From a bacterium (GTDB taxonomy: Bacteria > Patescibacteriota > Patescibacteriia > JAZDEU01): a stretch of 45,862 nt of DNA. This document shows, one piece after another, positions 2,385 through 38,312 of the stretch (position 1 is the first letter of the stretch; each line of letters starts with the position of its first letter). The stretch covers positions 1-45,862 of the forward strand of contig JAZDEU010000020.1 of NCBI GenBank assembly GCA_043808545.1, read 5' to 3'. A program made the position numbers and the translations under genes. The notes beneath the pieces are model-generated. The model saw nothing but the letters and a program-made list of their open reading frames with translations. It did no database searches and was not told the origin of the DNA.

Positions 2385-3435
2385 TGAAAAGTATTTGAAT
2401 AAAATAAATGATTTAGCTAAAAAGATAAAGCGTAACATAAAATTAATGGAAGTATGCGGAACTCATACGCAGGTTATAGCGCAATACGGGATTAAAAATG
2501 TTTTGCCTTCTAATATTAAATTAGTTTCAGGGCCTGGGTGTCCTGTTTGCGTAACTGCGAAATCTGACATTGATAATGTTGTTGCAATGGCGTTATCAGG
2601 AATTCCTATTTTCGCTTATGGCGATATCATCCGTGTGAGAGGAAACGGTTTTAGTCTGGCGGAGGCTAGAGAAATGGGAGCTAGTGTACGGGAAGTTTAT
2701 GGAGCAGAAGAAATTTTTAAATTAAATAAGAAAACAGTTTTTTTTGGCATCGGCTTTGAAACAACCGCTCCTATGACTGCATCTATTATAAAACGGGGCG
2801 CTATGGTTTATTCCGCGCATAAGGCGTTTATTCCCGCCATGAAAGCATTATTGCAAAGCGGGGAAATAAAAATAGACGGATTGATTTCTCCAGGGCATGT
2901 GGCGGCGATAGTTGGCGCGGATGTTTTCAAGGATTTTAAAACTGAAAATAATAAATATATTCCGCAAGTTATCGCTGGGTTTGAGATAGAAGATGTGTTT
3001 AAAGCGATTATACTGCTTTTAAAACAAATCGCGGATGGACGGGCGGAAACAGAGAATGCTTATACAAGAGTAGTTTTGCCAGAGGGAAATATTAAGGCGT
3101 TAAAATTGATAGATGAAGTTTTTGAGGTGGAAGATAGCGAGTGGCGTGGACTAGGAGTGATTCCAAATTCTGGATTTAAGTTGCGAAAAGAGTTTGAAGA
3201 CAGAGATGCGAAAATTATATACGGGGATATAATTACACAGATAGACGCAGATGTGAACACAGATAAACACAGACATGGATGTTTATGCGGTTCGGTGATA
3301 AAAGGTCTTAGTGAACCACAAAATTGTTCACTGTTCGGAAAGTTTTGTACTCCAGAAAATCCGCAAGGACCTTGTATGGTTTCTGTTGAAGGTTCTTGTT
3401 GTGTGGCGTATAAAAATAAGACAGAAAAACAGTGA
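2374..3435 (+). CDS. hypD: [NiFe]-hydrogenase maturation factor HypD
   Basis: MEVCGTHTQ, GPGCPVCVT, GFETTAP and PGHV motifs, plus the C-terminal Cys cluster CLCG...C...C..P.GPCMVSVEGSCC. It overlaps the pilin gene by 11 nt. Confidence 0.85.
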   Translation: MKSSEKYLNKINDLAKKIKRNIKLMEVCGTHTQVIAQYGIKNVLPSNIKLVSGPGCPVCVTAKSDIDNVVAMALSGIPIFAYGDIIRVRGNGFSLAEAREMGASVREVYGAEEIFKLNKKTVFFGIGFETTAPMTASIIKRGAMVYSAHKAFIPAMKALLQSGEIKIDGLISPGHVAAIVGADVFKDFKTENNKYIPQVIAGFEIEDVFKAIILLLKQIADGRAETENAYTRVVLPEGNIKALKLIDEVFEVEDSEWRGLGVIPNSGFKLRKEFEDRDAKIIYGDIITQIDADVNTDKHRHGCLCGSVIKGLSEPQNCSLFGKFCTPENPQGPCMVSVEGSCCVAYKNKTEKQ

Positions 3436-5649: not shown

Positions 5650-6093
5650 TTGGGAAAAGAAAGGACACTGGTAATTATTAAGCCCCATATTTTTTTGGAT
5701 AACGACGCGCAAAAAGTTAGTTTAATAATTGGGGATATTTTGCGCAGATATTTAGAACGTAGGTTGTCAGTTGTCGCCGTGAATTCGTTTTGTATGGATC
5801 GTGATGCAGTGGCAGGATTTTATCAAGAACACAATGGGCGGCCGTTCTTTAATGATTTAATAAATGCAATGATTGCAGCTCCAAGTTTTTTCATTGTTTT
5901 AGAAGGAGAATACGCTGTTCAGAAGGTGCGCAGTATCAACGGAGCAACAAATCCATTGGAAGCCGCGCAAGGGACATTGCGGCGGGATTATGGGCGGATG
6001 GAAAAGGGACCGAATAATGCAGTTCACGGATCCGATTCAGTAGAAAGCGCAGAAAGGGAAATAGCATGTTTTTTTCCTGAATTAGCTAGGTAA
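5650..6093 (+). CDS. ndk: nucleoside diphosphate kinase
   Basis: TLVIIKPH and NAVHGSDS (catalytic His) motifs. TTG start 8 nt after a rare perfect AGGAGG. Confidence 0.85.
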   Translation: MGKERTLVIIKPHIFLDNDAQKVSLIIGDILRRYLERRLSVVAVNSFCMDRDAVAGFYQEHNGRPFFNDLINAMIAAPSFFIVLEGEYAVQKVRSINGATNPLEAAQGTLRRDYGRMEKGPNNAVHGSDSVESAEREIACFFPELAR

Positions 6094-9107: not shown

Positions 9108-10175
9108 TTATCCGCCGCCGATAATAGCCACTGATCCTATTCGTCCGTCTTTGCCCAAACATTTTACCCGTCCGGCTCTTGAAAAAAAGTTTTCCAAACG
9201 GTGCGCATAATAGGATGATTTATTATCACAAAAACCAGCCAGTTCATTCAAATCTTTTTTCCATTCATTTATTGAATCTATAATAAAAAGGACATTATTT
9301 CCCATATCGCGGAAATATTCGGTGGCGGTGATTGCTTTATCCATAAATATATCGCGGGAAGCAGATAATTTTGCGCCATTAGTAAAAAAAATTGTTTTTT
9401 CAAGCAAAGATTTTTTTGATTTTAGATCTTTAAATTCAGTAAATTTATTTAAAAATTCAGGCTGGTTTTCTTTACGCAATACGGCAATTATTACATCTGC
9501 TTCTGTCCACTTTGCCAGCTGGCGCTGCATTATAGATTTTTCTATTTTATCTTCCTGATTAAATTTAGAGCAGAAAATGGAATCTAATATTTTTTGTTTG
9601 GAAATCAGTTCCTGCTCGGAAGAATTTTTTTCTTGATAAGGGCGCGGTATTCTAATCGGCCAATTTTGTCTCATAGAAATATCAATGAGTTTATTTCCGT
9701 CATAAATCTGAGCAATCGGTTCCTGAATTATAAAATTGCCGCTTTTGATGGATATTATTTCTCCGTTCATTTCATAAGGTGTTAGGATTTTATGGCTTAT
9801 GGAAGATGTTTCTTTTACTTCTCCTAAAAGATCTCCAGAATTTATTTTTTCGCCTTTAAACATCATAGGCAAGAAATTCCATTTTTCTGCAAGGTTTTGT
9901 TCTTTTTTGTAACGGCTGAAGATTCCGGGACCTAATTTGGTTAAAAAATAATGATTAGTGGAATAAACATTATCATTGGTGGTAAGTCCCGCCGTATTTT
10001 CATAAGCTTGAATATATATTTCGTCTGGAGTAATTTCTATAACTTCGCCGATCAATTTTCTATATCCCAGTTGTACTATTTCGTATAATTTCGCAGATTT
10101 TAAATTTTTCGTTGTTATAAAACTTTGATTGATAAAAGAAATTTTTCCAACATTTTGAGAATCGGCATAAGACAT
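9108..10175 (-). CDS. degenerate, truncated V/A-type ATPase catalytic (A) subunit homolog lacking Walker A
   Basis: Collinear with A subunits: GEVIEI..IQAYENTAGL, LGPG, the A-specific bulge with HKIL.P, WPIR.PRPY, QLAKW..ADV, ATEYFRDMG, FSRAGRV...GSVAIIGGG. GPFGSGKT is replaced by SKFNQEDK, and the protein stops about 200 aa early. Confidence 0.6.
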   Translation of the reverse strand: MSYADSQNVGKISFINQSFITTKNLKSAKLYEIVQLGYRKLIGEVIEITPDEIYIQAYENTAGLTTNDNVYSTNHYFLTKLGPGIFSRYKKEQNLAEKWNFLPMMFKGEKINSGDLLGEVKETSSISHKILTPYEMNGEIISIKSGNFIIQEPIAQIYDGNKLIDISMRQNWPIRIPRPYQEKNSSEQELISKQKILDSIFCSKFNQEDKIEKSIMQRQLAKWTEADVIIAVLRKENQPEFLNKFTEFKDLKSKKSLLEKTIFFTNGAKLSASRDIFMDKAITATEYFRDMGNNVLFIIDSINEWKKDLNELAGFCDNKSSYYAHRLENFFSRAGRVKCLGKDGRIGSVAIIGGG

Positions 10176-13208: not shown

Positions 13209-13326
13209 CAGAAAACCCTGGCAAAAGCCGGGGTCAGAAAACTCGGTAGTCCTGTTAAGGGCTTTCCCACTGGGATTTGTCCCGAGCATCTAGTTTCTAA
13301 AAGAATAATATCATATATATAAATGT

Positions 13327-14295
13327 ATGTCAAGATTAAAAAATTTTATTAAAATCGTAATAACGCAAAATTTAGGATTGTCAAAAGAACATATTGAACG
13401 GTTGAAATGTTTAGGGAAAGTAAAAATTTATAATGATTTAGCTAAAAATGCGGAAGAATGGTTAAATCGTTGTAATGGATCGGATATAATATGCACAGGA
13501 AAATTCGGATTAAAAACGAAAATTTATGAGTTAAAAAATGTGTTTTTTGTTTTGCCTTTTGTCTGTGTCGGTTTTTTGGATACAGGAAAACTTAGAGAAA
13601 GAAATATAACAGTTTCATATTGCCCGGGATGCAATAAAGACGCGGTTTCAGAGTGGATAATAGGAATGATAATAAATTTATTAAGAGATTTGCCGCATTT
13701 GATAAATAATAAAACTTTATCAAAAGGAAAAATTCCAGAAGCAAATATCGGGCTTACAGAAAAGAGAGTGGTTATACTGGGGAAAGGAAATATCGGTTCG
13801 CGCGCAGGGAAAATTTGCAAGGCGCTTGATATGGATGTGAATTATTTTCAAAGAAGCGGCAATTTAGCAGAGTGTGTTAAAAGTGCGGATATAATAATTA
13901 ATGCGTTAAGTTTAAATCCATCTTCAGTCAGGTTATTAGATGGAAATTTTTTTAAGGCGCTTTAAAAAGGCTCTTTTTTTATTACAGTTACCAATCCTGA
14001 AATTTATGATACGGATGCGATGCTTGAGGCATTAGATAATGGCACATTAGCAGGGGTTGCGTGCGACGCTGGCGGAATACAAGTCGGGGATGTTTATGAT
14101 CCTTATTATAAAAAATTATTACGGCATCAGAAAATTTTAGCAACTCCGCATATAGCCTATAAAACGGATGCGACCAATAAAACAGGAAATGATATGATGA
14201 TAAATAATATAGAAGCGTGGATAAAAGGAAAACCGATAAATATATGTCAAGAACTCAAAAAGAAATTAAAAATTTTATTAAAAATTGGAAATTAG
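13327..14295 (+). pseudogene. D-isomer-specific 2-hydroxyacid dehydrogenase family gene interrupted by an in-frame TAA (13963-13965)
   Basis: ORFs 13327-13965 and 14020-14295 are in the same frame. NAD fold VVILGKGNIGSRAG; C-terminal TPHIAYKT. The expected catalytic Arg region reads VTNPEIYD. Confidence 0.6.
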
Positions 14296-16300: not shown

Positions 16301-17968
16301 ATGACTAAAAAATATGTTTTTGTCGTGGGAGGGGTTATGTCGTCGGTTGGCAAAGGTGTTGCAGCGGCCTCAATCGGAAAAATAATTCAATCAAAAGGGT
16401 ACAGTGTGGCGAATATAAAATGCGATATGTATGTAAATATAGACGCAGGCACTATTCGTCCGGCGGAACATGGAGAGGTTTTTGTCGGAGAAGACGGGGT
16501 TGAGGCGGATCAGGATTTAGGTAATTATGAAAGATTCACAGACCAAATTTGCGCTCGCGATAATTATATAACTACTGGGCAAGTTTATCAGGAAGTAATT
16601 AGAAGAGAAAGAAATTTAGAATATGAAGGAGAAGATGTAGAGGTTGTTCCAGATATCCCAAAGGAAATTATAAGAAGGATAAAGTTATGTCAGAAAAAAA
16701 ATAATTCAGAGGTTACTATTGTTGAGCTTGGGGGGACGGTTGGAGAATATCAAGTTTTATTGTTTTTAGAAGCGGCGCGTATGATGAAAATGGAAAAGCC
16801 GAAAGATGTTTATTTTATTTTAGTAAGTTATCTCCCGACCCCGGGTCTTTTAGGCGAACAAAAATCAAAACCGACGCAATATGCGATAAGAACTTTGAAT
16901 TCTGCTGGAATTATGCCAGATTTTATATTGTGCAGGGCGACGAAACCAGTTAGTGATTCAATTAAAAATACTATAAGCACAGTTTGCAGTTTGCCGAAAG
17001 CGCATATTATTTCCGCGCCTGATGTATATTCAATTTATGATATTCCTGTTAATTTTGAAAAAGAAAATTTTGGCGATGTGATTTTAAAAACAATGGGGTT
17101 AAAATCGCAAAAAAAGGATTTGCGCGATTGGACGAATTTTTCAAATAAAATAAAATTAATTAATAAGGAGATCGCGATAGGCATTGTAGGGAAATATTTT
17201 AATTTTAAATCATGCAGAGATACATATATTTCTGTGATTGAATCTATAAATCACGCTTGCTGGCATAATAATATTAAGGCTGAAATTTTATGGCTTGATT
17301 CGGAAAATTACGAAAAAGATAAGAAAAATTTAAAAGAATTAGATAAAGTTGACGGAATTATTGTTCCGGGAGGATTTGGAAAAAGGGGAACTGAAGGCAT
17401 GATTTTAGCGGCGCAGTATGCGATGGATAATAAAATTCCGTATTTTGGATTATGTTTAGGGATGCAAATTTTAAGCATAGCTTTTACTCGTAAAGCTTTG
17501 GGGTTAAAAGACGCTAATTCAACCGAATTAAATCCAGCCACAAAAAATCCTGTTATATCAACAATGGCTGAGCAAAAAAATAATATAGAAAATAAAAATT
17601 ATGGCGGTACGATGAGGCTAGGCGCGTATCCTGCAAAACTTAAAAAAGATTCTTTAAGCTATAAAGCTTACGGTAAAATAGATATTTCAGAGAGGCATCG
17701 CCATAGATATGAGTTTAATAATGTGTATCGCGAAAGACTAGAAAAAAAAGGATTGAAAATAGCTGGAGTTAATCCAGACAGGGATTTAGTTGAAATTGTT
17801 GAAGTTGAAAATCATCCTTGGATGGTTGGAGTTCAGTTTCATCCTGAATTTAAGTCTCGTCCATTAAATCCGCATCCGCTTTTTAGAGAGTTTATTAAAG
17901 CGGCTGTTAAAGAAAAAAAAGGGGGGAATAATTATGAAAAAAAATCTGCAAAAAATAAAAAGATGTAA
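16301..17968 (+). CDS. pyrG: CTP synthase
   Basis: N-terminal VVGGVMSSVGKGVAAASIG; glutaminase domain GLCLGMQ and HRHRYEFN. Confidence 0.9.
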   Translation: MTKKYVFVVGGVMSSVGKGVAAASIGKIIQSKGYSVANIKCDMYVNIDAGTIRPAEHGEVFVGEDGVEADQDLGNYERFTDQICARDNYITTGQVYQEVIRRERNLEYEGEDVEVVPDIPKEIIRRIKLCQKKNNSEVTIVELGGTVGEYQVLLFLEAARMMKMEKPKDVYFILVSYLPTPGLLGEQKSKPTQYAIRTLNSAGIMPDFILCRATKPVSDSIKNTISTVCSLPKAHIISAPDVYSIYDIPVNFEKENFGDVILKTMGLKSQKKDLRDWTNFSNKIKLINKEIAIGIVGKYFNFKSCRDTYISVIESINHACWHNNIKAEILWLDSENYEKDKKNLKELDKVDGIIVPGGFGKRGTEGMILAAQYAMDNKIPYFGLCLGMQILSIAFTRKALGLKDANSTELNPATKNPVISTMAEQKNNIENKNYGGTMRLGAYPAKLKKDSLSYKAYGKIDISERHRHRYEFNNVYRERLEKKGLKIAGVNPDRDLVEIVEVENHPWMVGVQFHPEFKSRPLNPHPLFREFIKAAVKEKKGGNNYEKKSAKNKKM

Positions 17969-18356
17969 TTCTTTTAAACGGCTTGGCAATAATAGAATTG
18001 TTTTGTTGTATCTTTTTGGATCAGTTGCGCGCGGGACGGCGCATAAAGAGAGCGACATTGATATAGGGGTTTTATTTGATAATAAAACTAAGAAAAGCGA
18101 ATATTTGCGTTTAGAAGGCAGGATAATAGAATTTTTTTCTAACTTGTATCATAGCAAGGAAATAAATGTGGTGAATTTTAATATTTCCAGTCCGCTTTTG
18201 AAGCAAGTGGCGATTTTGGAAGGAAAATTATTATACAAACGGAGCGATGAGGATAGAATATTTTTTGAGATTAACATACTAAGGGAATATGAGGAATATT
18301 CCCACTTGTCTAAAATATATAATAAGTTTTTAAATGTAAAATTAAAAGCATTATGA
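17934..18356 (+). CDS. mntA: MNT-type nucleotidyltransferase antitoxin (type VII TA)
   Basis: LFGSVARGTAHKESDIDIGVL (GSX10DXD). It overlaps hepT by 4 nt and pyrG by 35 nt. Confidence 0.75.
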   Translation: MKKNLQKIKRCNSFKRLGNNRIVLLYLFGSVARGTAHKESDIDIGVLFDNKTKKSEYLRLEGRIIEFFSNLYHSKEINVVNFNISSPLLKQVAILEGKLLYKRSDEDRIFFEINILREYEEYSHLSKIYNKFLNVKLKAL

Positions 18357-18775
18357 CAAAAATTATAAAAGAACAATTTGATGATAAAGTTGATAATTTG
18401 GTAAAAATCTATGGAGGATTAAAAAAACTCCAGAGGTTGAAATTAAAAGATTTTAAAGAGAATATAGAAAATGTTTGGGCAGTTGCTTTCGGCGTGGTCG
18501 CTGGGATTGAAGCAATGCTGGATATTAGCCAGTATATCCTTTCTAGCAAAGGAATAAAGGCGGAAAGTTATGGAAGTATTCCTGAAAAATTATTGGAAGC
18601 AAAAGTTATAAATAAGGTATTTTCAACGAAAATGCGCGATATGATTGGCTTTAGAAATCGCGCTATTCACAATTATCCTTCTTTAGATGAAACATTACTG
18701 TATAAGGTTTTGCAAAATGATGTTGAGGATTTTAAGAAATTTTTGAAGATTGCGGAGAAATATAGGGATATGTGA
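18353..18775 (+). CDS. hepT: HEPN-domain toxin HepT (DUF86)
   Basis: RNRAIHNY matches the RX4HXY HEPN motif. 140 aa, translationally coupled to mntA. Confidence 0.75.
   Translation: MTKIIKEQFDDKVDNLVKIYGGLKKLQRLKLKDFKENIENVWAVAFGVVAGIEAMLDISQYILSSKGIKAESYGSIPEKLLEAKVINKVFSTKMRDMIGFRNRAIHNYPSLDETLLYKVLQNDVEDFKKFLKIAEKYRDM
18725..18763 (+). repeat. 39-bp direct repeat, copy 1 (native hepT 3' end)
   Basis: GAGGATTTTAAGAAATTTTTGAAGATTGCGGAGAAATAT, identical to 21170-21208. Confidence 0.95.
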
Positions 18776-28600: not shown

Positions 28601-29208
28601 TTTCTTATCTTGAGTATGCTAAAGATGGCTCAACAATAAGAGCGGGAGGGATAATCTCAACCATAAAAAAAATAATTACTAAAAAAAATGAGCAGATGAT
28701 GTTTATAAGATTGGAGGACGAGACTGGCGGAGGGGAAGTTATCGTATTCCCATCTATTCTAAAAGAATACGCAAATATTTTAAAAGAAGCAGAAACTGTT
28801 GTTATAACAGGAAAAGTTTCCGCGAAAGATTCAACAAATAAAATTATATGCAATGAAATTTTATCTATAAGAGAAGAAAACGCGCTTGACATAAATTCTC
28901 GCTTAGTAAAGATAGATTTTAAGTTAAGAAAGAAAGAAATTTTAGAGAAAGAAATTTTTGATAAAAACGAAGAGGATATTTATGCTGGAGAAATTGATAT
29001 TGGAAAAAAAATAAATATAAGGATAAATAATAAAAATGACATTTTGAAATTAAAGGACATTTTAATATCTGGGAAGGGCAATAATCTGGTATATTTAATT
29101 GTTGATAATAAAAAAATCAAGACTAAATTTAGCATTGATGATAGCGCGGAGATTAAACGTAAAATAGCTGAGATAGCGGGGGAGGGAAATGTGTTTGAGG
29201 AGATATAA
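25606..29208 (+). CDS. dnaE: DNA polymerase III alpha subunit
   Basis: PHP domain HLHTHSHYSLLDG; polymerase core GPGRGSAAGA..; FNRSHAACYA; 1200 aa. Confidence 0.9.
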   Translation: MTFTHLHTHSHYSLLDGLAKIDDLVAKAKEYKMDSLALTDHGVMYGLVEFYQKCKAAGIKPILGVEVYLAPNGMENKRSKIDEERPHLVLLAKNIQGYKNLIELTSKAHLDGFYYKPRIDFDLLEKNHEGLIALTACLGGEIPSLIKNGNRERAKQRIIEYSKLFGEGNFYLEIQHHKDCKIQEFVNKEMMKLSKETGVPLVATNDIHYVEAEDRHAHDILLCLQTKKQLADKNRMNMLEFDVSFRSPEQMIKDFSYIPEAIENTKIIADICNVEIELGEIKLPYYEVPEGNTENSYLNKLCVQGLKSRYNITEEEIMAVRNKKISDEELEIRNLKLEIGEKPSNEDFIRNVIERMDYELGVINKMGFASYFLIVQDFVNWSKNNGVVVGPGRGSAAGAIVAYLLNITNVDPIKYDLLFERFLNPERISMPDIDIDFADTKREDVIRYVEKKYGTDHVAQIITFGTMAARAAIRDVGRVLAIPYDYCDRIAKMIPMFSSLNKALEIVPDFKAIYKSDSDAKKLIDMARKLEGVARHSSRHACGIVISQNKLTDYVPLQYASGDDRTIVSQYSLHPVEDLGLLKMDFLGLKNLTIIERAIKIIKRIYNDEIDIDNLPIDDEKTYELFQQGNTTGVFQFESSGMRRYLKELKPTDIEDLIAMTSLYRPGPMDLIPEYIAVKHGRKKPSYLHPFLKPILDKTYGIAVYQEQLLRIARDLAGFTLGEADVLRRAIGKKIIKLLNEQKIKFIKGCIANGIKEKTARDIFAFMEPFAGYGFNRSHAACYAIIAYQTAYLKANYPAEFMAALMTSDNGNLDKIAVEIEESVRMGVDILPPDINESYKTFTVVDSEQRGKKKIRFGLSAVKNLGENIIENIKDEREKNGKFKDTDDFVNRMNCKDFNKKSLESLIKSGSLDGFGERGDLLASVDKILAYSKNAQKAKDGGQDSLFGQVETFQLKIEKGDPVSEKDKLSWEKEFLGLYISDHPFRKFSKILQDNIVKISYLEYAKDGSTIRAGGIISTIKKIITKKNEQMMFIRLEDETGGGEVIVFPSILKEYANILKEAETVVITGKVSAKDSTNKIICNEILSIREENALDINSRLVKIDFKLRKKEILEKEIFDKNEEDIYAGEIDIGKKINIRINNKNDILKLKDILISGKGNNLVYLIVDNKKIKTKFSIDDSAEIKRKIAEIAGEGNVFEEI

Positions 29209-29251
29209 AATCTGACTTTTTTATTTTTTTATATTATGGTAAAATAATATT

Positions 29252-29602
29252 ATGGATAAAGAAATAATGCTTAAATTTATAGATGAAGTTATTAGTAAGT
29301 CTGGACTTGAATTGCCAGATGATTTTAAGACCGATTATCAAGAGCGGATGCTTTCTAATCTGCAAAAAAAGATTTGGTTATTGATGATTTCTGAATTAGA
29401 TGATGCGAAATTAAAAAAGTTCGTTGAGTTGACTGATGGGATTAGTGATCCTGAAAATATCGGAGATAAAAAAAACATTGATATCTTAGAGTTTTTTAAA
29501 AATAATATAGAGGATTTTGAAATTAAGATTTTAAAAGCAATGGATGCTTTTGGAAATGATTTTATCAGTGATGTCGTAGCGCTTAAGGACAGTACGCTCT
29601 AA
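29252..29602 (+). CDS. hypothetical small acidic protein
   Basis: ORF track only. 116 aa, helical and acidic, co-directional with the 1078-aa gene. Confidence 0.35.
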   Translation: MDKEIMLKFIDEVISKSGLELPDDFKTDYQERMLSNLQKKIWLLMISELDDAKLKKFVELTDGISDPENIGDKKNIDILEFFKNNIEDFEIKILKAMDAFGNDFISDVVALKDSTL

Positions 29603-29703
29603 ATTAGCGCTGATTTTTTTTAAAACACACCCCTGTCACCTCTTGCTAGCGGGGAACTAATAGACTAAGTTTTTACCACATGAGTAGTTAAATATTTTTT
29701 AGT

Positions 29704-32700
29704 ATGTCTTTATTTAGAAAAACGAAAGAAATGGCGGTTCAAAAAGAAAAAGAATTTGAACCGCAAGAGCAAAAAGCTGATGAAGCTGTTGAGTTTTTAG
29801 ATCCAAGCGAGATAAGAAAGCAATATGACAGAGATATTGATCTTTTGATGTCAGCAAAAAACAAAGAATATATGGAGAGCATAAATGAAGATGAAGGAGC
29901 GCAGATAGATAAGAGGATTGCGAATATGGGAGAGCGTTTAGGATTTGGGGATGAGTTAGATAGAAAAAGAAATGGTGTTATGAATATATTCAGGAAAGTT
30001 TTTGGAGTTAAAGAGAAAAAAACAAAAGATGAGATAATTCTAGATAAGACGGGTAAAATAAGAGATGACGCGGAAGCATGGGTTAAGCGCGATTTGTATT
30101 TTGAGAAAGCGGAGAAAACGCGGCTAGAGCGGGAGAAAGAAGAATCTGCGTTAGCAACTAAAGGAAAAAATATTGCTAAAGTAATTGGTGGTTTAGGAAA
30201 GACAGTCGCAGAGGCTGGCGCGGCGTTTAAGGCAAGCCATATTTTAGTGTCATCCGGGTTAGCTATGGCTGGCGCGGGAGTTGCGGCAAGCGGAGCAGGG
30301 GCGGCAGTCGGATCTTTCGCGTTAGCTGGCGGAGCGCTTTATGGCGGAAAGAAAATGGCTAGTTGGGTAAAAGAGAAATGGAGAGAGCATAAGTATATGC
30401 AGGATGAGTTAGATTATGAGAATAAGTTTATTCAAGAAAGATTAAAACAAAGAACATCTGAACTAATGAGCATAGAATTGATGGATAAGCAGGACGCGGG
30501 AAGAGTGAAAGAAGATAAAAAATACGAGGGCATGAGAAAGCAATATATTACTGGGAAGATTGATGATAATGAATGGAATGAATTTTTAATGAATAGGGCA
30601 GGGGAATCAATAAAACAATGGGCAGAGGGAAAAGAAGGGATAGATGTAAAATACACGGAAAGAGAAATAAAGGATATGGGTGTTGCGGCGGCTGTTTTGG
30701 GGAAGACAGAGGAAAAATTAGATGGAAAAGTTGAGAGAAAATTATTTGACATAGCGAGAAGCAATCCGGCTTTGTTTAAAAAGATAAGCAATGAAAATAC
30801 ATTTAAAACAATGGGTAAAGAATATCTTAATGAATTAAAGGGTTTAGTTTTGTTTCAAATTCCGATTGTTCGTTTAGCTTTAACTGGCGCCGGCGGATGG
30901 GAGCTTGGAAATCAAGTAATAGACATAGCTTTTGAGGGCAATGAATGGTATGAACAAAATAAATATGGCTTGCGTACTTTAACGAAATCTATAGCAGGCA
31001 TTGGCGGAGTGGCGGCTTTGTTTTATGTTTTTTCGCAAGAAGTGGATGGGAGTAAAATTAAAGGGTTAGTTCAGGAGTTTAGGAATGATTGGGGGAAAGT
31101 CGGGAAAATAATAGAGACGCTTTCTCCGGGTAAAGCTGAGGCGGCGGAGATAGAATATCAGACGCCGCAAGTCAAAGATTCTAATGTTGTTAAGGCGCTT
31201 AGTAGTAAAGGGAAGTCAATAGAAGATTTTCATACAGAAGGAAAAATAAACATTGTAAAAGGAGATAATTTATGGAAAATTGCGCAAGAAATGCAACCGC
31301 CAGCGTCTAATAATATTAAAACGCTTCTTGGCGCAGAACTTGCGCCAAAAAACATTAAAGGCGTTGCTCCAAATGTTGCGTTAGATGCAGGGAAAAAGAT
31401 TCAAATAGACGCGATCAAGGATTTTTTAGTTAATAAATATAAACAGCAATATCCGGGAGCTAACCCTGATGTAATTAAACCGGGGCAGAAAATAGATTTT
31501 AGTCCAAAGGAATTAACAGAATATCTTACAAAAAAAGGCGGCGTTGTTGAGAAAGTGCAAAATTTAACTCCGAAGCAAGCTATGGAAGCCGCAGGCGGAA
31601 AATATGATGTTAAGCCTATTAAAAAAGCGGTGGCGGTTGAGAAAGTGAAGAATGTTAAAGAGGTAAAAAGTGCGGAGATTAAAGAGAAGGTGAAAATTGA
31701 AAAGAAGGCGGATGCGCAACAAAAGACAAAAGAAGGACAGGCGCAAGAAGTCAGTAAAGATTCTAAAATAGAAGATAATAGCGATATAAATAAGAGAATA
31801 GCTGATAATGATTATGTGAGTCAGGCAGAGTGGGAGCAAGCTCATACCATAGCTTCGCCGCAAGAATACGCGGATTATATGGAAAAGGTTCCTTTGGCGA
31901 AGAGAGTAGGAAAAGGGATGGAGAAATTAAAGTTGCCGCAAGATAAGATAGAGCTTGAATATGTAAAAAAGATTGAAGGTATAGCAGAAAAATTTACGAC
32001 GGAGCAAAGAAAATTAGGCGCGGTCAAAGAATTGGAAAACAGAATAAATAGATTAGATGGTAATGCGAATAAAGAGACTATTGAAGATCATATTTTATTT
32101 TTATCGCAGTCTGGCGCAGAAAGAGATGTTTTTAATTTAAAATTAAATAGCGCGATAGAGCTGAGAAGCGTTCTGCAGAAACGGCTTAATGTTTCGCCCG
32201 AAGCGATTGGCAGACTAGAAGCGATTTCATCCACAAAAGACGGAATGGTTTTAACGCCGGAAGGTATTTTGGGACATCCTAAAATATATTTATCTGAAAA
32301 TTATGAAATTACAAAAGTAGAAAATGCAGGATATGTTTATGAATCTTCGCGCGACCAATTGAGCAGTTTCAGAGATTGGAAAAAAAGAATCTTAAGACAG
32401 GATAATAGCGTGAAATGGAATCAGTTTCTAGACTATATAGTTATAAAGGGAAATGTTTCAGAAACGAATATGCGCTATGTAAATAGTCCGGAGAAGGTGA
32501 ATTTTGTAATATATTTAGTTGAGCATAATTCTTTTAATAATGTAGAAGCTAGTTCGCGTTTAGGAGATTGCTTAAAGTTGCTTGATAGCCGTCCGTCTTT
32601 AAACTTTTTGCAGAAATTTAATTTTGCGAGAATTATATTAAACCCGAAAAATGCGGAAGTGTCAAAAGATTTTATTACGAGTTTTGGGTTTAGTGAACCA

Positions 32701-32940
32701 AAAGATATAAAGATTAAAGTAAAAGGGGATAGGATTACAATACCGGGCGTGGAGCTTAATGGTAATAAATTTAATTTGCATTTTGATACAAAGACTGGGG
32801 AATTTATTGATCCATGGTTTTTTGGTTTAGGGGACAAAAGATTTAAAAATCCATCTGAATTTTTGAATTATTTAGGAGAGCATATTAAGCATAAGACAGG
32901 GCATTTTTCATATTTGAAAAAGCGGGGGCGGCGGGGGTAG
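29704..32940 (+). CDS. large hypothetical membrane-associated protein with a Gly/Ala-zipper segment and a LysM-like module
   Basis: GGLGKTVAEAGAAF...AMAGAGVAASGAGAAVGSFALAGGALYGG hydrophobic block; a second hydrophobic pair near aa 385-450; INIVKGDNLWKIAQEM...IKPGQKIDF is LysM-like. Confidence 0.5.
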   Translation: MSLFRKTKEMAVQKEKEFEPQEQKADEAVEFLDPSEIRKQYDRDIDLLMSAKNKEYMESINEDEGAQIDKRIANMGERLGFGDELDRKRNGVMNIFRKVFGVKEKKTKDEIILDKTGKIRDDAEAWVKRDLYFEKAEKTRLEREKEESALATKGKNIAKVIGGLGKTVAEAGAAFKASHILVSSGLAMAGAGVAASGAGAAVGSFALAGGALYGGKKMASWVKEKWREHKYMQDELDYENKFIQERLKQRTSELMSIELMDKQDAGRVKEDKKYEGMRKQYITGKIDDNEWNEFLMNRAGESIKQWAEGKEGIDVKYTEREIKDMGVAAAVLGKTEEKLDGKVERKLFDIARSNPALFKKISNENTFKTMGKEYLNELKGLVLFQIPIVRLALTGAGGWELGNQVIDIAFEGNEWYEQNKYGLRTLTKSIAGIGGVAALFYVFSQEVDGSKIKGLVQEFRNDWGKVGKIIETLSPGKAEAAEIEYQTPQVKDSNVVKALSSKGKSIEDFHTEGKINIVKGDNLWKIAQEMQPPASNNIKTLLGAELAPKNIKGVAPNVALDAGKKIQIDAIKDFLVNKYKQQYPGANPDVIKPGQKIDFSPKELTEYLTKKGGVVEKVQNLTPKQAMEAAGGKYDVKPIKKAVAVEKVKNVKEVKSAEIKEKVKIEKKADAQQKTKEGQAQEVSKDSKIEDNSDINKRIADNDYVSQAEWEQAHTIASPQEYADYMEKVPLAKRVGKGMEKLKLPQDKIELEYVKKIEGIAEKFTTEQRKLGAVKELENRINRLDGNANKETIEDHILFLSQSGAERDVFNLKLNSAIELRSVLQKRLNVSPEAIGRLEAISSTKDGMVLTPEGILGHPKIYLSENYEITKVENAGYVYESSRDQLSSFRDWKKRILRQDNSVKWNQFLDYIVIKGNVSETNMRYVNSPEKVNFVIYLVEHNSFNNVEASSRLGDCLKLLDSRPSLNFLQKFNFARIILNPKNAEVSKDFITSFGFSEPKDIKIKVKGDRITIPGVELNGNKFNLHFDTKTGEFIDPWFFGLGDKRFKNPSEFLNYLGEHIKHKTGHFSYLKKRGRRG

Positions 32941-33043
32941 CAGTATATAATTTTTTTTTAAAAAAAAAATAAGAACCATAGAGAGAAATAAGATGTTTGT
33001 GAGTTTTTTTGCTCGCATCAAATTTTTCAATATGGTTCTTTTT

Positions 33044-33080
33044 GGAGCGGAGCCGTGAACCAAACGGCTCCGCTTTTGTG
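33044..33080 (+). terminator. rho-independent terminator downstream of the 1078-aa gene
   Basis: AGCGGAGCCGT - gaaccaa - ACGGCTCCGCT (11-bp perfect stem) followed by TTTTGTG. Confidence 0.65.
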
Positions 33081-33255
33081 AACTATAATGTGCGTGTCAC
33101 CACATTTCCCCCTCTAAAGATGGGGGAATAGGGGAGTTGGGGCTATAATGGGCGTGTCGCCGAATGCGGTTTTTTACAAAATTATGAAAACTTTTAGGCT
33201 TTATTAAGCCAAAATTTTTTTCAAAAATCGTAAAATTTGCTATTCGGCGACAGTC

Positions 33256-34086
33256 TCATAATTTGCGGGCGTAAAATACCACCCGTTGGTTTTTTTTGCG
33301 ATCCGATGGTTCGTACTCCATCGTTTCGCCTCCGTACTCTATCCCTTCGACAGAGTACCCCTTCCCTTTAAAAAAGTCGGCAACTGCCTGCGCCCGGGCA
33401 GTACCGAGTTTTTCATTTAACTCCCCGCCAGCCTCTGTTAACGCTGGCGATGCCATGCCCTTCACGGAGTACACTTTATATAAAGGTGTAGTATTTGGGT
33501 CAGACATTTTGTCTGCCCATTCTTGAGTCTGCACAAGAGTGGCACCCTCTAGCGCCGACTTTCCCTCCCCAAAGCCGACGATATAGCCGACAATATAGTC
33601 GGCGTAATCACCGGCAGTAAGGTCGCGGGTTCGTAGGGCGGTCTTGCGGACGTCGCCAATTTGCTCCCCGAGACTTCGCGCTCGGGTGGCAATTTTTTTG
33701 ACGGTGGTGTCTAGGACTCTTAGGTTGTCCTTGACGGCTCCGACCTGCCCCTCGAGTACATCGTGGGCGGCTGTTACGACCGCGATGCGGACATCGTGGC
33801 TATCCAGCCGCTCCCCAAGAGCGGTTGCTTCTCCTTCTAGGCTGGTCGCCCGCTCCTCTATGGCGTCGGTCGCTTCCCCAAGAGCGGTTGCTTCTCCTTC
33901 TAGGCTGGTCGCCCGCTCCTCTATGGCATCGGTCGCTTCCCCGAGAGCCTCAAATGCCTCCCTAGAGGAGACCTGCCCCGCCTCCAGCGCATCCAGTCTC
34001 CCATTTATTACGGCTAATTTCCTTGGGATGCAACCGGAAACCGCCACCACCGCCACCAGCACTACAAAAAAATTTGCCTTTCTCAT
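33256..34086 (-). CDS. lipoprotein with a coiled-coil region and an OmpA_C-like peptidoglycan-binding domain; compositionally foreign (high GC)
   Basis: Lipobox VVAVSGC; duplicated 21-aa unit GEATDAIEERATSLEGEATAL; C-terminus ...ELNEKLGTARAQAVADFFKGKGY...GGE...KKNQRVVFY. GGAGGG lies 9 nt upstream of the ATG. Confidence 0.65.
   Translation of the reverse strand: MRKANFFVVLVAVVAVSGCIPRKLAVINGRLDALEAGQVSSREAFEALGEATDAIEERATSLEGEATALGEATDAIEERATSLEGEATALGERLDSHDVRIAVVTAAHDVLEGQVGAVKDNLRVLDTTVKKIATRARSLGEQIGDVRKTALRTRDLTAGDYADYIVGYIVGFGEGKSALEGATLVQTQEWADKMSDPNTTPLYKVYSVKGMASPALTEAGGELNEKLGTARAQAVADFFKGKGYSVEGIEYGGETMEYEPSDRKKNQRVVFYARKL
33813..33938. repeat. 63-bp tandem duplication (2 copies, 1 mismatch seen) inside the lipoprotein gene
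   Basis: CCCCAAGAGCGGTTGCTTCTCCTTCTAGGCTGGTCGCCCGCTCCTCTATGGC(G/A)TCGGTCGCTT starts at 33813 and again at 33876. Confidence 0.9.
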
Positions 34087-34625
34087 TTTTAAATCCCTCC
34101 GCCCAGTCCTATTCGCATAAGAGGGGCTGTCTTTTTGAAAATTTTTTAAAAAAAAATTAAAATTCCCTTAAGTCCTCTTTTAAAAAAAGAGGGAAATACT
34201 TATTAAGAAAATTTTTCGGCCTCCCCCCTTTCCTCGTTGGAAAGTTTTTTATGGTTTATCTTCTGATACTAATTTCTTTGTTTTAAAAATATCACCCTAA
34301 TTAGATAGGGAGAACAAAGAAAATAGCATATTTTTCAAGGTACTTAATAAAATAGCATATCACATATTTAATATTTTGTCAAGCATTTTAGTATGTTTTT
34401 GGCTAAAATAAGAGAAAAATAAGAGCTGAAAAAGTGATAGTTATGCTCTATTTAACATTTAGTAAAAAAAAATTAAAATATGGTAGAATTTAAGCGAGTG
34501 AAGAAAGAGGATTATGTTTAAGAACGAAACAAACCATAGGATTATTCGGTTGAATGTCTGTGTTGCCGCAGTTGTTGCCAGTATAGAATCTGTGTGATAA
34601 GCTTAATTTAGTAAGATTTTAAAAT

Positions 34626-36527
34626 ATGCGTGAAAAAATTATAAAAATAATAAAATCACCATTGCTATATCTTACGCTAATCGCGGCGGTTTTTTTTGTC
34701 GCATATTCCGCTCCAAGATTTAATACAACAATTATAAATTCTTCTCCTGATGAAAACGCTAATTACTATTTTTCACGCCTTGTCGCGGAAGAAAGTACTT
34801 TGAAAAAGTATGAGCCTTTGAATGAAAATATTGATGCGATAGTTCACCCGCGAAGCGTAAATGTTAATAGAGATAATTATTTAGTCCCCGGAAGCTTTTT
34901 AGGATTGCCTATTATTTATGGAATAATAGGCAAAATATTTACTCCAAATATAATAATTTTTTTGACTCCATTTTTCGCGGTAATCGCAAGTTTATTTTTC
35001 TATGGAATAATGAAAAATATTTTTTCACGCGAGGAGGCGTTTATAGCATCTATTTTAATGCTTGCTAACCCTGTTTTATGGTACTATTCAACTAGAAGTA
35101 TGTTTCATAATGTTCTTTTTTTGAGTTTACTTATAATTGGAACTTTTTTCTTAATTAATGCTGGATTATCAAGAGATGCGGGAGCATTAAATAGCAGTGA
35201 ACAGCAAAAAGATAAATTTCAAATTTCAAGCTTCAAATTTCAAAATAATATCAAATATCAAATATCAAATTTTAAAAAATATATATTTTTGTTTTTAGCT
35301 GGATTTTTTCTTGGGTTAGCGCTTATTACGAGAACTGCGGAGGCGCCGTGGGTAATATTAGTGTTATTGATATTATTAGTCATATATTGGAAAAAAATAA
35401 AAATTTTTGAAATTTTTATTGTAGTTGTAGCGATTATTTTAGTGAGTTTGCCTATATTATATTGCAACCAAATATTATACGGCAGTCCATTTTTAACGGG
35501 ATATTCTAATTTAAGAAAAAATGATTTAGCCGCAACCGAAGTTAATGACAGTAATGTAAATTCAGAAGATAAAAGCGATAAATGCTTAATAAATAATCTT
35601 AATGGCGGTGGTAATTTGGAGTTGTCGTGCGGCGCGAGCAATGTTTCTGTTCCTGCGGAGAATGCGCAAAATAATGATTTATATAATAAGATAAAAAAAT
35701 TAGTAAAAAATAATATTCCTGCCAATTTTGTATTGCATTTTAACATAAAAACAGTAGTTCTAAATTTTAAGAATTATTTTATTGATTTCTTTAAGCCATT
35801 AAGCTATTTATCTTTCGCAGGTATTATTTTCTTGATAATTTGGCTGGTTTTTTATAAAATAAAGAAAGGAGAAGATGACGAGAAAAGATTAAAAAGCAAG
35901 CTAGCGTATTTAATTATTTTTTGCATAGTTTCCGCCTATCTTATTATCTATTACGGAAGTTGGATTTTTTACGATACGCCCGATAAAACTTTGATTACTA
36001 TAGGTACATCTTATACAAGATATTGGCTCCCAGTATATATAATGAGCTTGCCATTTATTTCTTTCTTGATCGTAAAAATTTCAAAAATTTTTAAATTTTC
36101 TTTTCCGAAATTTATATTTATTTTTTTATGCGCGAGCGTAATTGTTTCATATTGCGGATGGCGGGTTTTATATGCGCCATACGAGGGTATAATTGAGCAA
36201 TTTAAGAATATGGGGGAATACCCGTATAAGAAAGAATTGGTTTTAAAGCTCACAGAGGAAGATGCGGTTATCGTTAATCAATATTATGATAAATTATTTT
36301 TTCCGCAAAGAAAAGTAGTAGCCAGCAAGATGCATGATGATGAAAATGTTATACTGGCTTTAGCGTCTATCGTTGATCGCGCGAGTGTTTATTATTATGC
36401 TTTTAACTTAAAGCAGGAAGATATTGATTATATAAACAGGGTTAAATTAGCTGATTACGGGCTTATGCTAACTGATGGGAATATAATTTTTAAGGATGAG
36501 GAATTATGGAGGGTAATTAGAAAATAA
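34626..36527 (+). CDS. polytopic membrane protein, GT-C fold glycosyltransferase-like (family 39 / ArnT-PMT-like)
   Basis: More than 10 predicted TM helices. The first extracytoplasmic loop carries an acidic motif (SSPDENANYYFS). 633 aa, with low-complexity inserts. Confidence 0.45.
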   Translation: MREKIIKIIKSPLLYLTLIAAVFFVAYSAPRFNTTIINSSPDENANYYFSRLVAEESTLKKYEPLNENIDAIVHPRSVNVNRDNYLVPGSFLGLPIIYGIIGKIFTPNIIIFLTPFFAVIASLFFYGIMKNIFSREEAFIASILMLANPVLWYYSTRSMFHNVLFLSLLIIGTFFLINAGLSRDAGALNSSEQQKDKFQISSFKFQNNIKYQISNFKKYIFLFLAGFFLGLALITRTAEAPWVILVLLILLVIYWKKIKIFEIFIVVVAIILVSLPILYCNQILYGSPFLTGYSNLRKNDLAATEVNDSNVNSEDKSDKCLINNLNGGGNLELSCGASNVSVPAENAQNNDLYNKIKKLVKNNIPANFVLHFNIKTVVLNFKNYFIDFFKPLSYLSFAGIIFLIIWLVFYKIKKGEDDEKRLKSKLAYLIIFCIVSAYLIIYYGSWIFYDTPDKTLITIGTSYTRYWLPVYIMSLPFISFLIVKISKIFKFSFPKFIFIFLCASVIVSYCGWRVLYAPYEGIIEQFKNMGEYPYKKELVLKLTEEDAVIVNQYYDKLFFPQRKVVASKMHDDENVILALASIVDRASVYYYAFNLKQEDIDYINRVKLADYGLMLTDGNIIFKDEELWRVIRK

Positions 36528-36601: not shown

Positions 36602-37405
36602 ATGAATAAAAATAAATTGATAATTTTTGAGAGCAGACAAATTCGCAGGACTTGGCATAATGAAAAATGGTTTTTTTCCGTGGTTGATGTTGTCGGAGTT
36701 TTAACGGAATCTGTAAATCCTACGGATTATCTTAAAAAAATTCGGAGAAGAGATAAAGAACTAGGTATCTACATAGGGACAAATTGTCCCCACATAGAAA
36801 TGACCACAGAAGCGGGGAAAAACAGAAAAACTCTCGCGGGAAATCCTGAAAATATTTTTAGAATTATCCAGTCTATCCCATCGTCCAAAGCAGAACCATT
36901 TAAAAGATGGTTGGCAAAAGTTGGTTACGAGAGAGTGCAGGAAATTGAAAATCCAGAATTAGCGCAAGAAAGAATGAAGGAAATTTATGAACAAAAAGGT
37001 TATTCAAAAAATTGGATTGATAAAAGGTTAAGAGGTATTGCGATTAGGCAGAATTTAACAGATGAATGGAAAGAACGAGGAATTGAAAATAAAAATGATT
37101 TTGCTATTTTAACAGCAGAAATTTCAAAAGCGACTTTTGGTATAACTCCGTCAGAATATAAAGAATTAAAAGGTCTGAATAGTAAAAATCAGAATTTATG
37201 GGATCATATGACGGATTTCGAATTAATTTTTAATATGCTTGGCGAAAAAGTAACAACGGAAATTTCTCAGAAAGAAAAACCGGATACTTTTACTAAAAAT
37301 AAAGAAGTTGCAAGAAGGGGCGGAGGAGTTGCTGGCAAGGCGAGGGAAGAAACAGAAAAAGAAATAGAACTCATTGCGACTTACCACAAAAGTATCTTAG
37401 GTTAA
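36602..37405 (+). CDS. Bro-N domain protein (phage antirepressor-like); 3' end replaced by the IS insertion
   Basis: IFESRQIRRTWHNEKWFFSVVDVVGVL and SIPSSKAEPFKRWLAKVGYERV motifs. The last 13 codons (ELIATYHKSILG*) are read from the IS left end. Confidence 0.55.
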   Translation: MNKNKLIIFESRQIRRTWHNEKWFFSVVDVVGVLTESVNPTDYLKKIRRRDKELGIYIGTNCPHIEMTTEAGKNRKTLAGNPENIFRIIQSIPSSKAEPFKRWLAKVGYERVQEIENPELAQERMKEIYEQKGYSKNWIDKRLRGIAIRQNLTDEWKERGIENKNDFAILTAEISKATFGITPSEYKELKGLNSKNQNLWDHMTDFELIFNMLGEKVTTEISQKEKPDTFTKNKEVARRGGGVAGKAREETEKEIELIATYHKSILG

Positions 37406-38312
37406 TTAAAGTATATGCTAAAAGCTTTTTTCCCTTATAATTACTGGACTTTCGGTCATATCTGATAACAAGAGAACGATATGCATCTTCCCATCCAAAT
37501 GTTCTTTCTATAGAAAAACGTTTCAGATAAATTTTTTTATTAAAGTATCGCGGTCTTCCTTTTTTCTTTTTATCTTTCTTTCTATTTCTTGGATTCTCTG
37601 GAATGTTGGGCTTCATACCGATATTCCAGATAATCTTGCGATTAGCTTTAGAATCAAATCCCATATCCAAATTAAAGACCTTGCCTTTTATATCAAGATT
37701 TATCGCTTTGACTATTTTTTGAAAATCCGCAATACTGCACTTTAATAAAGAAATGTCATTTAAGTTTACTTCTATGCATTCAACTGGGGAAATAATATTG
37801 CCGATACTGTCTGTAAGCCCGATAATTTTTTGACCTTTCTGATGTTTATGCCCTGAATAACCTATTTTATCGCCCCTTTTTTAGCCACGCTATTGTTGCC
37901 GTCGCCATGAATGCATTTGAATTTTAATTTGTTTTTGTCTTTTAAATAACGGACGCTTTCAATAAATATCTTTTCGAAACTCCCATCATTTGACCAACGA
38001 TTGAACCACTTCCAAACATTAACATGATGAATTTCTTTTTTGCCAGATTCATTTAGTTTGATTGGAATTTTTTCCCACTGGCATCCTGTGTCCAACTGAT
38101 AAAGGATGTAACTAAAAATTGAATGCAATTTTTCCGATGTTGGAATAATTCCCCGCTTTGGCAGAGATAGGTAGGGCAAAAAGAATTTTTCAAACTCTCT
38201 AAAAGTTAATTTTTTAGGAAGTTTGTTGAATTTTTTATTATGTGATTTTTTCATAGGTATTTTAGCTTACCTATGCATTATATCATTATTTATACTAAGT
38301 CGCAATGAGTTC
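37367..38312 (-). mobile_element. IS5-family insertion sequence (IS427-group-like), 946 bp, apparently intact
   Basis: 17-bp perfect terminal inverted repeats GAACTCATTGCGACTTA (37367-37383 / 38296-38312). 3-bp direct repeat ATA (37364-37366 / 38313-38315). Two-ORF transposase. Confidence 0.85.
37371..38254 (-). CDS. IS5-family DDE transposase, orfA-orfB joined by a -1 frameshift at A6G (minus-strand A-run = 37877-37882)
   Basis: orfA has ...YQLDTGCQWEKIP...WFNRW (DUF4096-like). The -1 frame continues GDKIGYSGHKHQKGQKIIGLTDS...FNLDMGFDS...SIERTFGW..IRYDRK with no stop. Confidence 0.75.

Follow-up and report, generated by a model that had tools for sequence, protein, structure and literature searches.

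Known membrane-to-wall tethers and the window gene

Two described lipoproteins are among the closest counterparts of the protein reported here. Lpp is a lipid-anchored alpha-helical coil that joins the membrane to the peptidoglycan; how far apart the two lie is believed to depend on its length, and heptad insertions lengthen it. Pal is lipid-anchored at its N-terminus and ends in an OmpA-like domain. In domains of this kind a conserved Asp (motif GhtD) and a conserved Arg (motif LSxRRA) hold the diaminopimelate (DAP) of the peptidoglycan, as do D271 and R286 in A. baumannii OmpA. We analysed the bacterial contig JAZDEU010000020.1 (assembly GCA_043808545.1) over its whole length of 45,862 nt, hereafter the window, which has a GC content of 33.8% and 38 open reading frames (ORFs). 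One of these encodes a putative lipoprotein and forms a GC-rich island; the 37 others served as the comparison set.

33256-34086, minus strand: lipoprotein coding sequence (CDS), coincident with the GC island; 276 amino acids, ATG start, NCBI MFH1192167.1, locus tag V1655_01705

The GC excess of this gene is an old, heritable property of the gene lineage, neither a recent import nor an assembly artefact. We consider it moderately probable that the gene truly belongs to the chromosome and encodes a lineage-restricted lipoprotein of the envelope, a probable membrane-wall tether, and that its GC excess derives from an old acquisition whose amelioration is incomplete.

The window protein resembles Pal in its N-terminal lipid anchor, its C-terminal OmpA-like domain and the motifs N..LG..RA..V and NxRV, which are common to both. 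A two-sequence family profile run against the PDB matched E. coli Pal with an E value of 9e-3, and the Foldseek matches of the structural model include 9rle_P, 4b5c and 4pwt. Pal differs in having a short flexible linker and not a 19-heptad coil, in belonging to the tol-pal operon and binding TolB, and in keeping the Asp of the motif GHAD, which is Ser here. No tol genes were found nearby and the NCBIfam Pal model gave no match; the neighbours are DnaE, a hypothetical protein of 1078 amino acids and a PMT_2-like glycosyltransferase. With Lpp, the window protein shares the plan of a lipid-anchored coiled coil linking membrane and wall, a functional analogy only, without sequence similarity: Lpp has 58 amino acids, is trimeric, lacks a globular domain and is attached covalently through its C-terminal Lys, whereas the window protein has 276 amino acids and ends in ...ARKL. 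The Lpp family was absent from the Pfam and NCBIfam matches of the lipoprotein.

The best PDB sequence match of the same profile (E 7e-4) was the OmpA-like domain of Francisella FopA1 (PDB 6u83), in which VKGYAS...YNQKLSEKRAQAVADY corresponds to VKGMAS...LNEKLGTARAQAVADF of the window protein; both have Ser in place of the Asp. The full-length model of the window protein predicts the fold of the FopA1 domain (PF00691), with a longer loop after GxAS, but FopA1 is an outer-membrane protein and not a coiled-coil lipoprotein. The MotB/MotS periplasmic domains and PRK09039, a peptidoglycan-binding protein that joins a coiled coil to an OmpA/MotB domain, follow the plan of the window protein, with a membrane anchor, a helical spacer and an OmpA-like wall-binding domain, and MotB structures are at the top of the Foldseek matches. 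These proteins differ in being anchored by a transmembrane helix, MotB works in a stator with MotA, and no flagellar genes are present in the window. The match of the coil to NCBIfam PRK09039 was weak and restricted to the coil (E 0.016, 15 bits against a cutoff of 305).

Base composition of the gene

The island gene has a GC content of 55.6% and a fraction of G or C at third codon positions (GC3) of 0.576, against 0.283±0.037 in the remaining 37 ORFs (maximum 0.347; z 7.9). No 831-nt stretch outside the island exceeds 43% GC, and the island is the strongest tetranucleotide outlier of the window. The original prediction, made from the sequence alone, had described a jump in GC over this ORF and third positions unlike those of every other gene in the window. 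Its hand counts (37/60 G+C at 33721-33780 and 12/60 at 34141-34200) were reproduced exactly, and the comparison of codon usage and tetranucleotides that it had proposed, carried out within the window, set the gene apart by both measures. The two antisense ORFs that it had noticed are present (33296-33526 and 33644-34120), and all the elements that it had listed were found in place or at most 1 nt away.

From the amino acids of the lipoprotein and the codon usage of the host, a GC3 of 0.315 and an overall GC of 45% would be expected; the observed GC3 lies above that value, so the GC excess is both synonymous and amino-acid driven. The amino-acid composition is of the GC-rich type (Ala 13.8%, Gly 9.8%). 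Codons ending in G or in C are about twice as frequent as in strand-matched genes (C 0.29 vs 0.15, G 0.29 vs 0.11); among those raised are GGG (44% of Gly), CGG and GAG, none of them a typical optimal codon. Codons of the AT type, typically avoided by GC-rich genomes, are also frequent (TTT 7/7, ATA 4/10, TTA 5/23, CTA 6/23). Within the gene, the segment encoding the coil is the richest in GC (60-67%), and the non-repetitive C-domain has about 50% in both known lineages of the family (see below).

Third positions in the window also depend strongly on the strand: in genes on the plus strand C makes up 0.09 and G 0.19, in those on the minus strand 0.15 and 0.11, respectively. Cumulative GC skew climbs steadily from about 11 kb. 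Both observations are consistent with a strong replication-strand mutational bias.

A distant homologue in a conserved setting

When 1.84 billion representative proteins were scanned exhaustively with HMMER, a single real relative emerged, P0002 (280 amino acids, E 5e-39), which is 51% identical to the window protein over residues 135-276 and is also a lipoprotein; its stalk could not be aligned with that of the window protein and has no continuous register. The P0002 gene lies on a 2-kb Logan contig, L001 (SRR24302411), between flanks of 25-30% GC, and the C-terminal half of the gene has 47-51% GC. This GC bump is milder than that of the window, with a GC3 of 0.41 vs 0.29 in the neighbouring gene. 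The gene convergent on that of P0002 encodes a product with 37% amino-acid identity (E 3e-33) to the C-terminus of the protein encoded next to the island.

29704-32940, plus strand: convergent gene for the hypothetical protein of 1078 amino acids, conserved syntenic partner; GC 37%, host-like composition

No Pfam or PHROG family matched the 1078-residue protein. By eye, it contains Gly/Ala-rich hydrophobic segments and a LysM-like motif (IVKGDNLWKIAQEM); its sequence suggests that the syntenic partner may be another envelope or wall-associated protein.

Between the window gene and the L001 gene synonymous sites are saturated, with a proportion of synonymous differences (pS) of 0.77, and conserved residues have the same codon in 27 cases vs 24.3 expected by chance. 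Both orthologues prefer GCC, ACC, TAC and GAC.

Other searches added no members to the family. In a word-index search the full lipoprotein retrieved itself alone and its C-domain nothing, and P0002 used as query retrieved only P0002 and the window protein (P0001). GTDB species genomes gave no match with the neighbour gene or the family alignment, JGI metagenomes gave none with either query, and no relative of the lipoprotein was found in IMG/VR, plasmids or phages. P0003, an RTX-like repeat protein of 1544 amino acids (E 1e-6 in the HMMER scan), was discounted as a match due to repeats or composition. Literature and accession searches turned up nothing specific. A search for the donor clade, as suggested in the original prediction, found no donor-like homologue among the 1.84 billion representative proteins or in the other collections. 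The comparison with sister genomes, also suggested there, showed the gene at the orthologous site in the low-GC genome of L001, although this is one divergent genome and not many.

Alleles, repeats and integrity of the contig

The locus occurs in three further assemblies, 99-99.9% identical. One contig, L003 (GCA_041643235.1), is 99.75% identical to positions 29000-35021 of the window and spans both junctions of the island; L004 (GCA_041643215.1) and L002 (GCA_041643175.1) each include a portion of the locus. Clustering at 90% places two further alleles with the window protein, the lengths being 257 (P0013), 276 and 278 amino acids, and every sampled allele carries the lipoprotein gene. The length differences map to two repeats.

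33812-33948, minus strand: 63-bp tandem repeat, 2.2 copies with 97% matches and a single base difference between the two full units
34040-34058, minus strand: micro-repeat ACCGCC/ACCGCCACC (TRF period 9), encoding the hydrophobic core of the signal peptide

Each 63-bp unit encodes 21 amino acids, that is, exactly three heptads of the coil described below. The repeat and its one mismatch had been noticed beforehand, with a start at 33813 instead of 33812. L004 lacks exactly 33812-33874, one 63-bp unit, and so encodes the 257-residue allele P0013; the population sampled contains both alleles with a single full unit and alleles with two. The signal-peptide micro-repeat is polymorphic too, the other two alleles (L003 and L004) having an extra ACCGCC at 34039 that adds Ala-Val.

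L004 differs from the window by three single-nucleotide polymorphisms (SNPs) in the 831-nt CDS and by three in about 930 nt of flanks. Diversifying selection was considered and rejected: 3/3 SNPs in the CDS are nonsynonymous, but this is not significant and the SNP density equals that of the flanks. In the neighbouring gene, L003 presents at 29904 a 1-nt insertion relative to the window that splits the 1078-residue protein into ORFs of 69 and 1016 amino acids, either a frameshift allele or a homopolymer error.

Architecture of the lipoprotein

Three segments were recognized in the protein.

34030-34086, minus strand: signal peptide and lipobox MRKANFFVVLVAVVAVSG followed by Cys (Cys19 codon at 34030-34032); PROSITE-type lipoprotein rule satisfied
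33622-34020, minus strand: predicted coiled-coil stalk, residues 23-155, 19 heptads in a single unbroken register
33259-33609, minus strand: divergent OmpA-like domain, residues 160-276, beta-alpha-beta-alpha-beta-beta in the AlphaFold2 (AF2) model; profile, hhalign and Foldseek evidence

The lipobox of the window protein reads VLVAVVAVSG-C19, and the PROSITE-type rule is satisfied in all four known family proteins: P0001, its alleles P0013 and P0014, and the distant homologue P0002. Neither lgt nor lspA was seen among the annotated ORFs of the 46-kb window. Along the stalk, one heptad position is strongly hydrophobic in 16/19 heptads, and the position three residues earlier is hydrophobic, Ala included, in 15/19. 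The heptad phase is unchanged across all five 28-residue windows of the stalk, and the full-length AF2 model places helices at residues 2-35, 41-93 and 97-155. Matches of the coil to DUF7310, Sec10_N, tape-measure proteins, SMC/Rad50, P22 gp26 and phrog_5553 were judged to reflect coiled-coil composition and not homology. The lipobox (VAVSGC) and the coiled coil with its duplicated 21-residue unit had both been predicted, and both hold, the unit fitting the 19-heptad register without a remainder.

The OmpA_C/Pal-like C-terminus proposed in the original prediction is supported, as a divergent OmpA-like domain, by sub-threshold sequence matches and one model of moderate confidence. A Pfam scan of the full lipoprotein gave coil-type noise and no OmpA match at E <= 0.01, and Pfam OmpA was also unmatched by P0002. 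Alignment by hhalign to a Pal plus OmpA profile, built from template sequences entered by hand, had a probability of 83% (E 8.5e-6; 69 columns aligned, 39% identical). In the full-length AF2 model the mean pLDDT is 62.5, with blocks of the C-domain at 72-91 and the secondary-structure elements in the order listed above. When this model was submitted to Foldseek, the top 46 PDB matches were all OmpA, MotB, Pal or YfiB domains (best E 1e-4, TMt up to 0.69). The canonical Arg is retained as Arg231 (33394-33396), in TARAQAV.

Promoter, leader and Shine-Dalgarno sequence

The region upstream of the gene contains the following elements, listed in the direction of transcription.

34354-34382, minus strand: sigma-70-type promoter TTGACA-17-TATGCT with a TG extended -10, found by scanning; it implies a leader of about 260 nt
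34087-34347, minus strand: AT-rich 5' leader, with blocks shared with L001 (GAAAGGGGG, GAAAATTTT and CCCCTC...GGAGG)
34121-34126, minus strand: CCCCTC leader element, complementary to the Shine-Dalgarno (SD) sequence
34095-34100, minus strand: SD sequence GGAGGG, 8 nt upstream of the ATG

The promoter block is kept in L001 as TTGACA-17-TGcTATACT. The leader length is about 260 nt in the window and about 190 nt in L001 (130-316), and the 8-nt spacing between SD and ATG is found in L001 as well, where the SD reads GGAGG. The rarity of such a motif, already pointed out in the original prediction, was borne out by a count: GGAGG or GAGGG occurs within 25 nt upstream of the start in 2/38 ORFs of the window, the lipoprotein gene and ndk (5650-6093, TTG start).

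Folding of the leader gave z = -2.85 in the window and z = -0.5 in L001. In each of the two leaders, predicted hairpins adjoin or include the SD, and the complementary element reads CCCCTCC in L001. Judging from these two sequences, it is possible that the CCCCTC element forms a hairpin that would sequester the SD, and the conserved leader may be a translational control or an mRNA-stabilising element. Searches of Rfam found no family for the leader and nothing credible in the flanks.

Origin of the GC excess

The reading that we favour is that the gene was acquired from a GC-rich, SD-using, probably diderm donor before the lineages of the window and L001 split, and that its amelioration would still be incomplete; a foreign origin in the deeper past is plausible. 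We ranked the readings in the order old transfer, selection, GC-biased recombination, recent transfer and chimera. Old transfer was placed ahead of selection because G- and C-ending codons are both raised, GGG, CGG and GAG included, and because the amino-acid composition is of the GC-rich type and an SD is present while 36/38 ORFs lack one. A back-of-envelope decay from a starting GC3 of at least 0.9 toward 0.28 would lead, at about 0.6 and 1.2 substitutions per site, to values of 0.57 and 0.41; the same arithmetic would give a pS near 0.68, in keeping with the saturation seen. A clearly less probable reading, which still deserves serious consideration, is that of a native gene, among the most expressed of the cell as lpp, ompA and pal are in E. 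coli, whose GC is kept by selection on codons, amino acids or mRNA stability. Such a gene agrees with the near-consensus extended -10 promoter in both lineages, the strong SD at conserved spacing in a genome almost devoid of SDs, the long conserved leader, the limitation of the GC rise to the CDS with an AT-rich orthologous leader, the GC3 excess in both lineages despite saturated synonymous divergence (dS), and the codons GCC, ACC, TAC and GAC favoured by both orthologues. However, G-ending codons are raised as much as C-ending ones relative to strand-matched genes, the enrichment of GGG, CGG, CTA and GAG together with TTC 0/7 is no classical optimal-codon signature, and ndk, the sole other SD-bearing ORF, has no such bias. 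Highly expressed reference genes are absent from the window. A signature of translational selection read from the preference for C-ending codons was downgraded, since minus-strand genes of the window tend to have more C at third positions, and against that background codons ending in G are raised equally. GC-biased recombination, by gene conversion between alleles or coil repeat units or by recurrent allelic replacement, might also hold GC3 high, and the evidence makes this improbable. The coil is indeed the GC-richest part of the gene and includes a recent duplication of 63 bp in which the alleles differ, the stalk cannot be aligned between lineages while the C-domain is 51% identical, and the 6-bp repeat of the signal peptide is polymorphic too; nevertheless, the non-repeated heptads (residues 93-120) are equally rich in GC, the non-repetitive C-domain stays near 50% in both lineages, and SNP density between L004 and the window is not higher in the CDS (3 in 831 nt) than in the flanks (3 in about 930 nt). 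We discarded heptad amplification as the source of the coil's GC content, since it would not account for the whole island: near-identity is limited to the 63-bp units, and the remaining heptads have at most 62% of their bases in common.

The original prediction had preferred a very recent horizontal transfer from a GC-rich organism, which might be an episymbiont's host, and had given an assembly chimera as its alternative. The orthologous locus in a diverged low-GC genome, with neighbour, promoter and SD spacing conserved, the saturated dS between the window and L001 genes (pS 0.77), the absence of a donor homologue from every collection, the presence of the gene in all sampled alleles and the frequent use of TTT, ATA, TTA and CTA make such a recent event very unlikely, despite the extreme GC and GC3 values with their sharp boundary, the SD of the gene's own, the fact that OmpA-like domains are typical of diderm bacteria and the mobile-element genes (Bro-N and an IS4/5 fragment) lying 2.5-4 kb away. 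A recently transferred island was thus not recognized here: the gene occupies the orthologous site in L001, no donor was found, and the mobile-element genes are at least 2.5 kb distant. No tRNA genes were found in the window. As for a chimera, in which a fragment of a GC-rich genome would have been spliced into an AT-rich contig, the compositional jump alone speaks for it. The locus is reproduced by three further assemblies, one of them continuous across both junctions at 99.75% identity, in alleles with differences of their own; the independent Logan assembly holds the homologue in a like context between AT-rich flanks; and the sole repeat flanking the island is an 18-nt A/T tract. We take the chimera to be refuted and give it practically no weight.

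Several observations weigh against old transfer of a gene for a membrane-wall tether. The orthologous leader upstream of the CDS is fully AT-rich (27-30% GC), and a co-transferred flank should lag as GC3 does, so a boundary as sharp as the CDS fits selection or a gene-sized insert better. Orthology rests on the single 2-kb contig L001, and a donor-type homologue was not found in any database searched. The one-unit allele could in principle be a short-read repeat collapse, although its own SNPs speak against collapse. With the C-domain in isolation, PF00691 OmpA was the sole Pfam match, at E 0.013 and 16.3 bits vs a gathering score of 27.2, and a domain-only AF2 model was poor (pLDDT 45.8), with no OmpA match by Foldseek. 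The canonical DAP-binding Asp is replaced by Ser213 (33448-33450), Ser being present in both members of the family (GMAS and GLAS) and in FopA1 (GYAS). The function is inferred only from the anatomy of the protein.

A sharp single-gene GC island, as this case warns, need not mean recent transfer or a chimera. An anomaly that outlasts synonymous saturation implies either that amelioration is much slower than usually assumed for this gene or that its composition is maintained.

Proposed function

The lipoprotein is likely to be a membrane-to-peptidoglycan tether or spacer, to judge from its sequence and structural model. Cys19 would be lipidated and would anchor the protein in the membrane. The rise of a canonical coiled coil is about 0.15 nm per residue, and residues 23-155 would form a continuous 19-heptad coil about 20 nm long. 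The C-terminal OmpA-like domain would then bind peptidoglycan non-covalently, and the protein would hold membrane and wall together at a fixed distance, combining an Lpp-like spacer with Pal-like wall binding. The idea of the original prediction that it could tether the cell to foreign peptidoglycan, such as that of a host, is speculative. Gain or loss of one 63-bp unit would change the stalk by about 3 nm and leave its register intact.

A more far-reaching proposal, which we regard as rather doubtful, is that the protein would be the main membrane-to-wall tether and ruler of a small, AT-rich, almost SD-less cell, probably of the Candidate Phyla Radiation (CPR)/Patescibacteria type and thought to lack an outer membrane. 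Its stalk would be tuned by slippage of three heptads, and its GC content, SD and promoter would be kept for very high expression; or else the pocket with the Asp to Ser change would recognise the wall of a partner cell for episymbiotic attachment.

The gene defines an orphan family of two lineages. Its product unites a lipid anchor, a stalk of variable length in perfect coiled-coil register and a divergent head of the OmpA-like type, and is a candidate wall tether in poorly understood bacteria. The three-heptad length polymorphism would offer a natural experiment on stalk length versus envelope spacing. Nothing here overturns current knowledge, and the functional part of this account is an inference.

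The downstream flank

The interval between the stop codon of the lipoprotein gene and the convergent neighbour contains several structured elements, and one further repeat encloses the whole.

33153-33254, no strand assigned: imperfect palindrome of about 100 nt directly 3' of the stop codon, with a GC-rich base and an AT-rich interior; minimum free energy z = -5.8 / -6.9
33083-33161, plus strand: two 19-mers CTATAATG(T/G)GCGTGTC(A/G)CC, at 33083 and 33143, flanking a C5/G5 hairpin
33044-33082, plus strand: intrinsic-terminator-like hairpin of the convergent gene for the 1078-residue protein, a 13-bp GC-rich stem followed by TTTTGTG, found by folding
32948-32965 and 34142-34159: perfect 18-nt A/T-only inverted repeat (TAATTTTTTTTTAAAAAA), enclosing the island and the terminator of the neighbour

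An 11-bp inverted repeat (33155-33165 / 33242-33252) forms the base of the hairpin of about 100 nt. The original prediction had reported this repeat, which is present, although as a pair of 11-mers it lies within chance (11/100 shuffles). At the matching relative place L001 has a 22-nt inverted repeat with its arms 200 nt apart; the sequences are unrelated, and the downstream flanks of the window and L001 do not align. The two 19-mers at 33083 and 33143, also reported earlier, proved to be in place and beyond chance, since 0/100 shuffles gave two matches; they were not found in L001. Together with the C5/G5 hairpin they sit between the palindrome and the terminator of the neighbour gene, whose hairpin adds to the GC rise 3' of the island gene.

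The 18-nt A/T inverted repeat was rejected as the termini of a mobile element: it is a low-complexity tract of the T9A6 type that recurs nearby, and the element would enclose the terminator of the neighbour. Similar tracts are located at 32954, 34458 and 10298.

Other features of the window

Two remnants of mobile elements lie on the upstream side of the island gene: a gene for a Bro-N domain protein (36602-37405, plus strand), which matches phrog_15286 with an E value of 1e-94, and a fragment of an IS4/5-type transposase (DUF4096; 37862-38254, minus strand) with deviant codon usage. Rfam identified a DUF3800-II RNA at 13232-13297 on the minus strand (65.3 bits, E 2e-11, above the gathering score), just upstream of an ORF with the NAD-binding domain of 2-hydroxyacid dehydrogenases (13327-13965).

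Tandem genes for T4SS_pilin / TrbC-VirB2-like pilins occupy 1457-1903 and 1911-2384 on the plus strand. On the same strand, the overlapping ORFs 17934-18356 and 18353-18775 encode an MNT-like nucleotidyltransferase and a HepT-like RNase, a pair of the toxin-antitoxin type. The hydrogenase maturation protein HypD is encoded at 2374-3435, and the ORF at 9108-10175 has alpha/beta-subunit domains of A/V-type ATPases; both are of interest for the metabolism of this small-genome bacterium.

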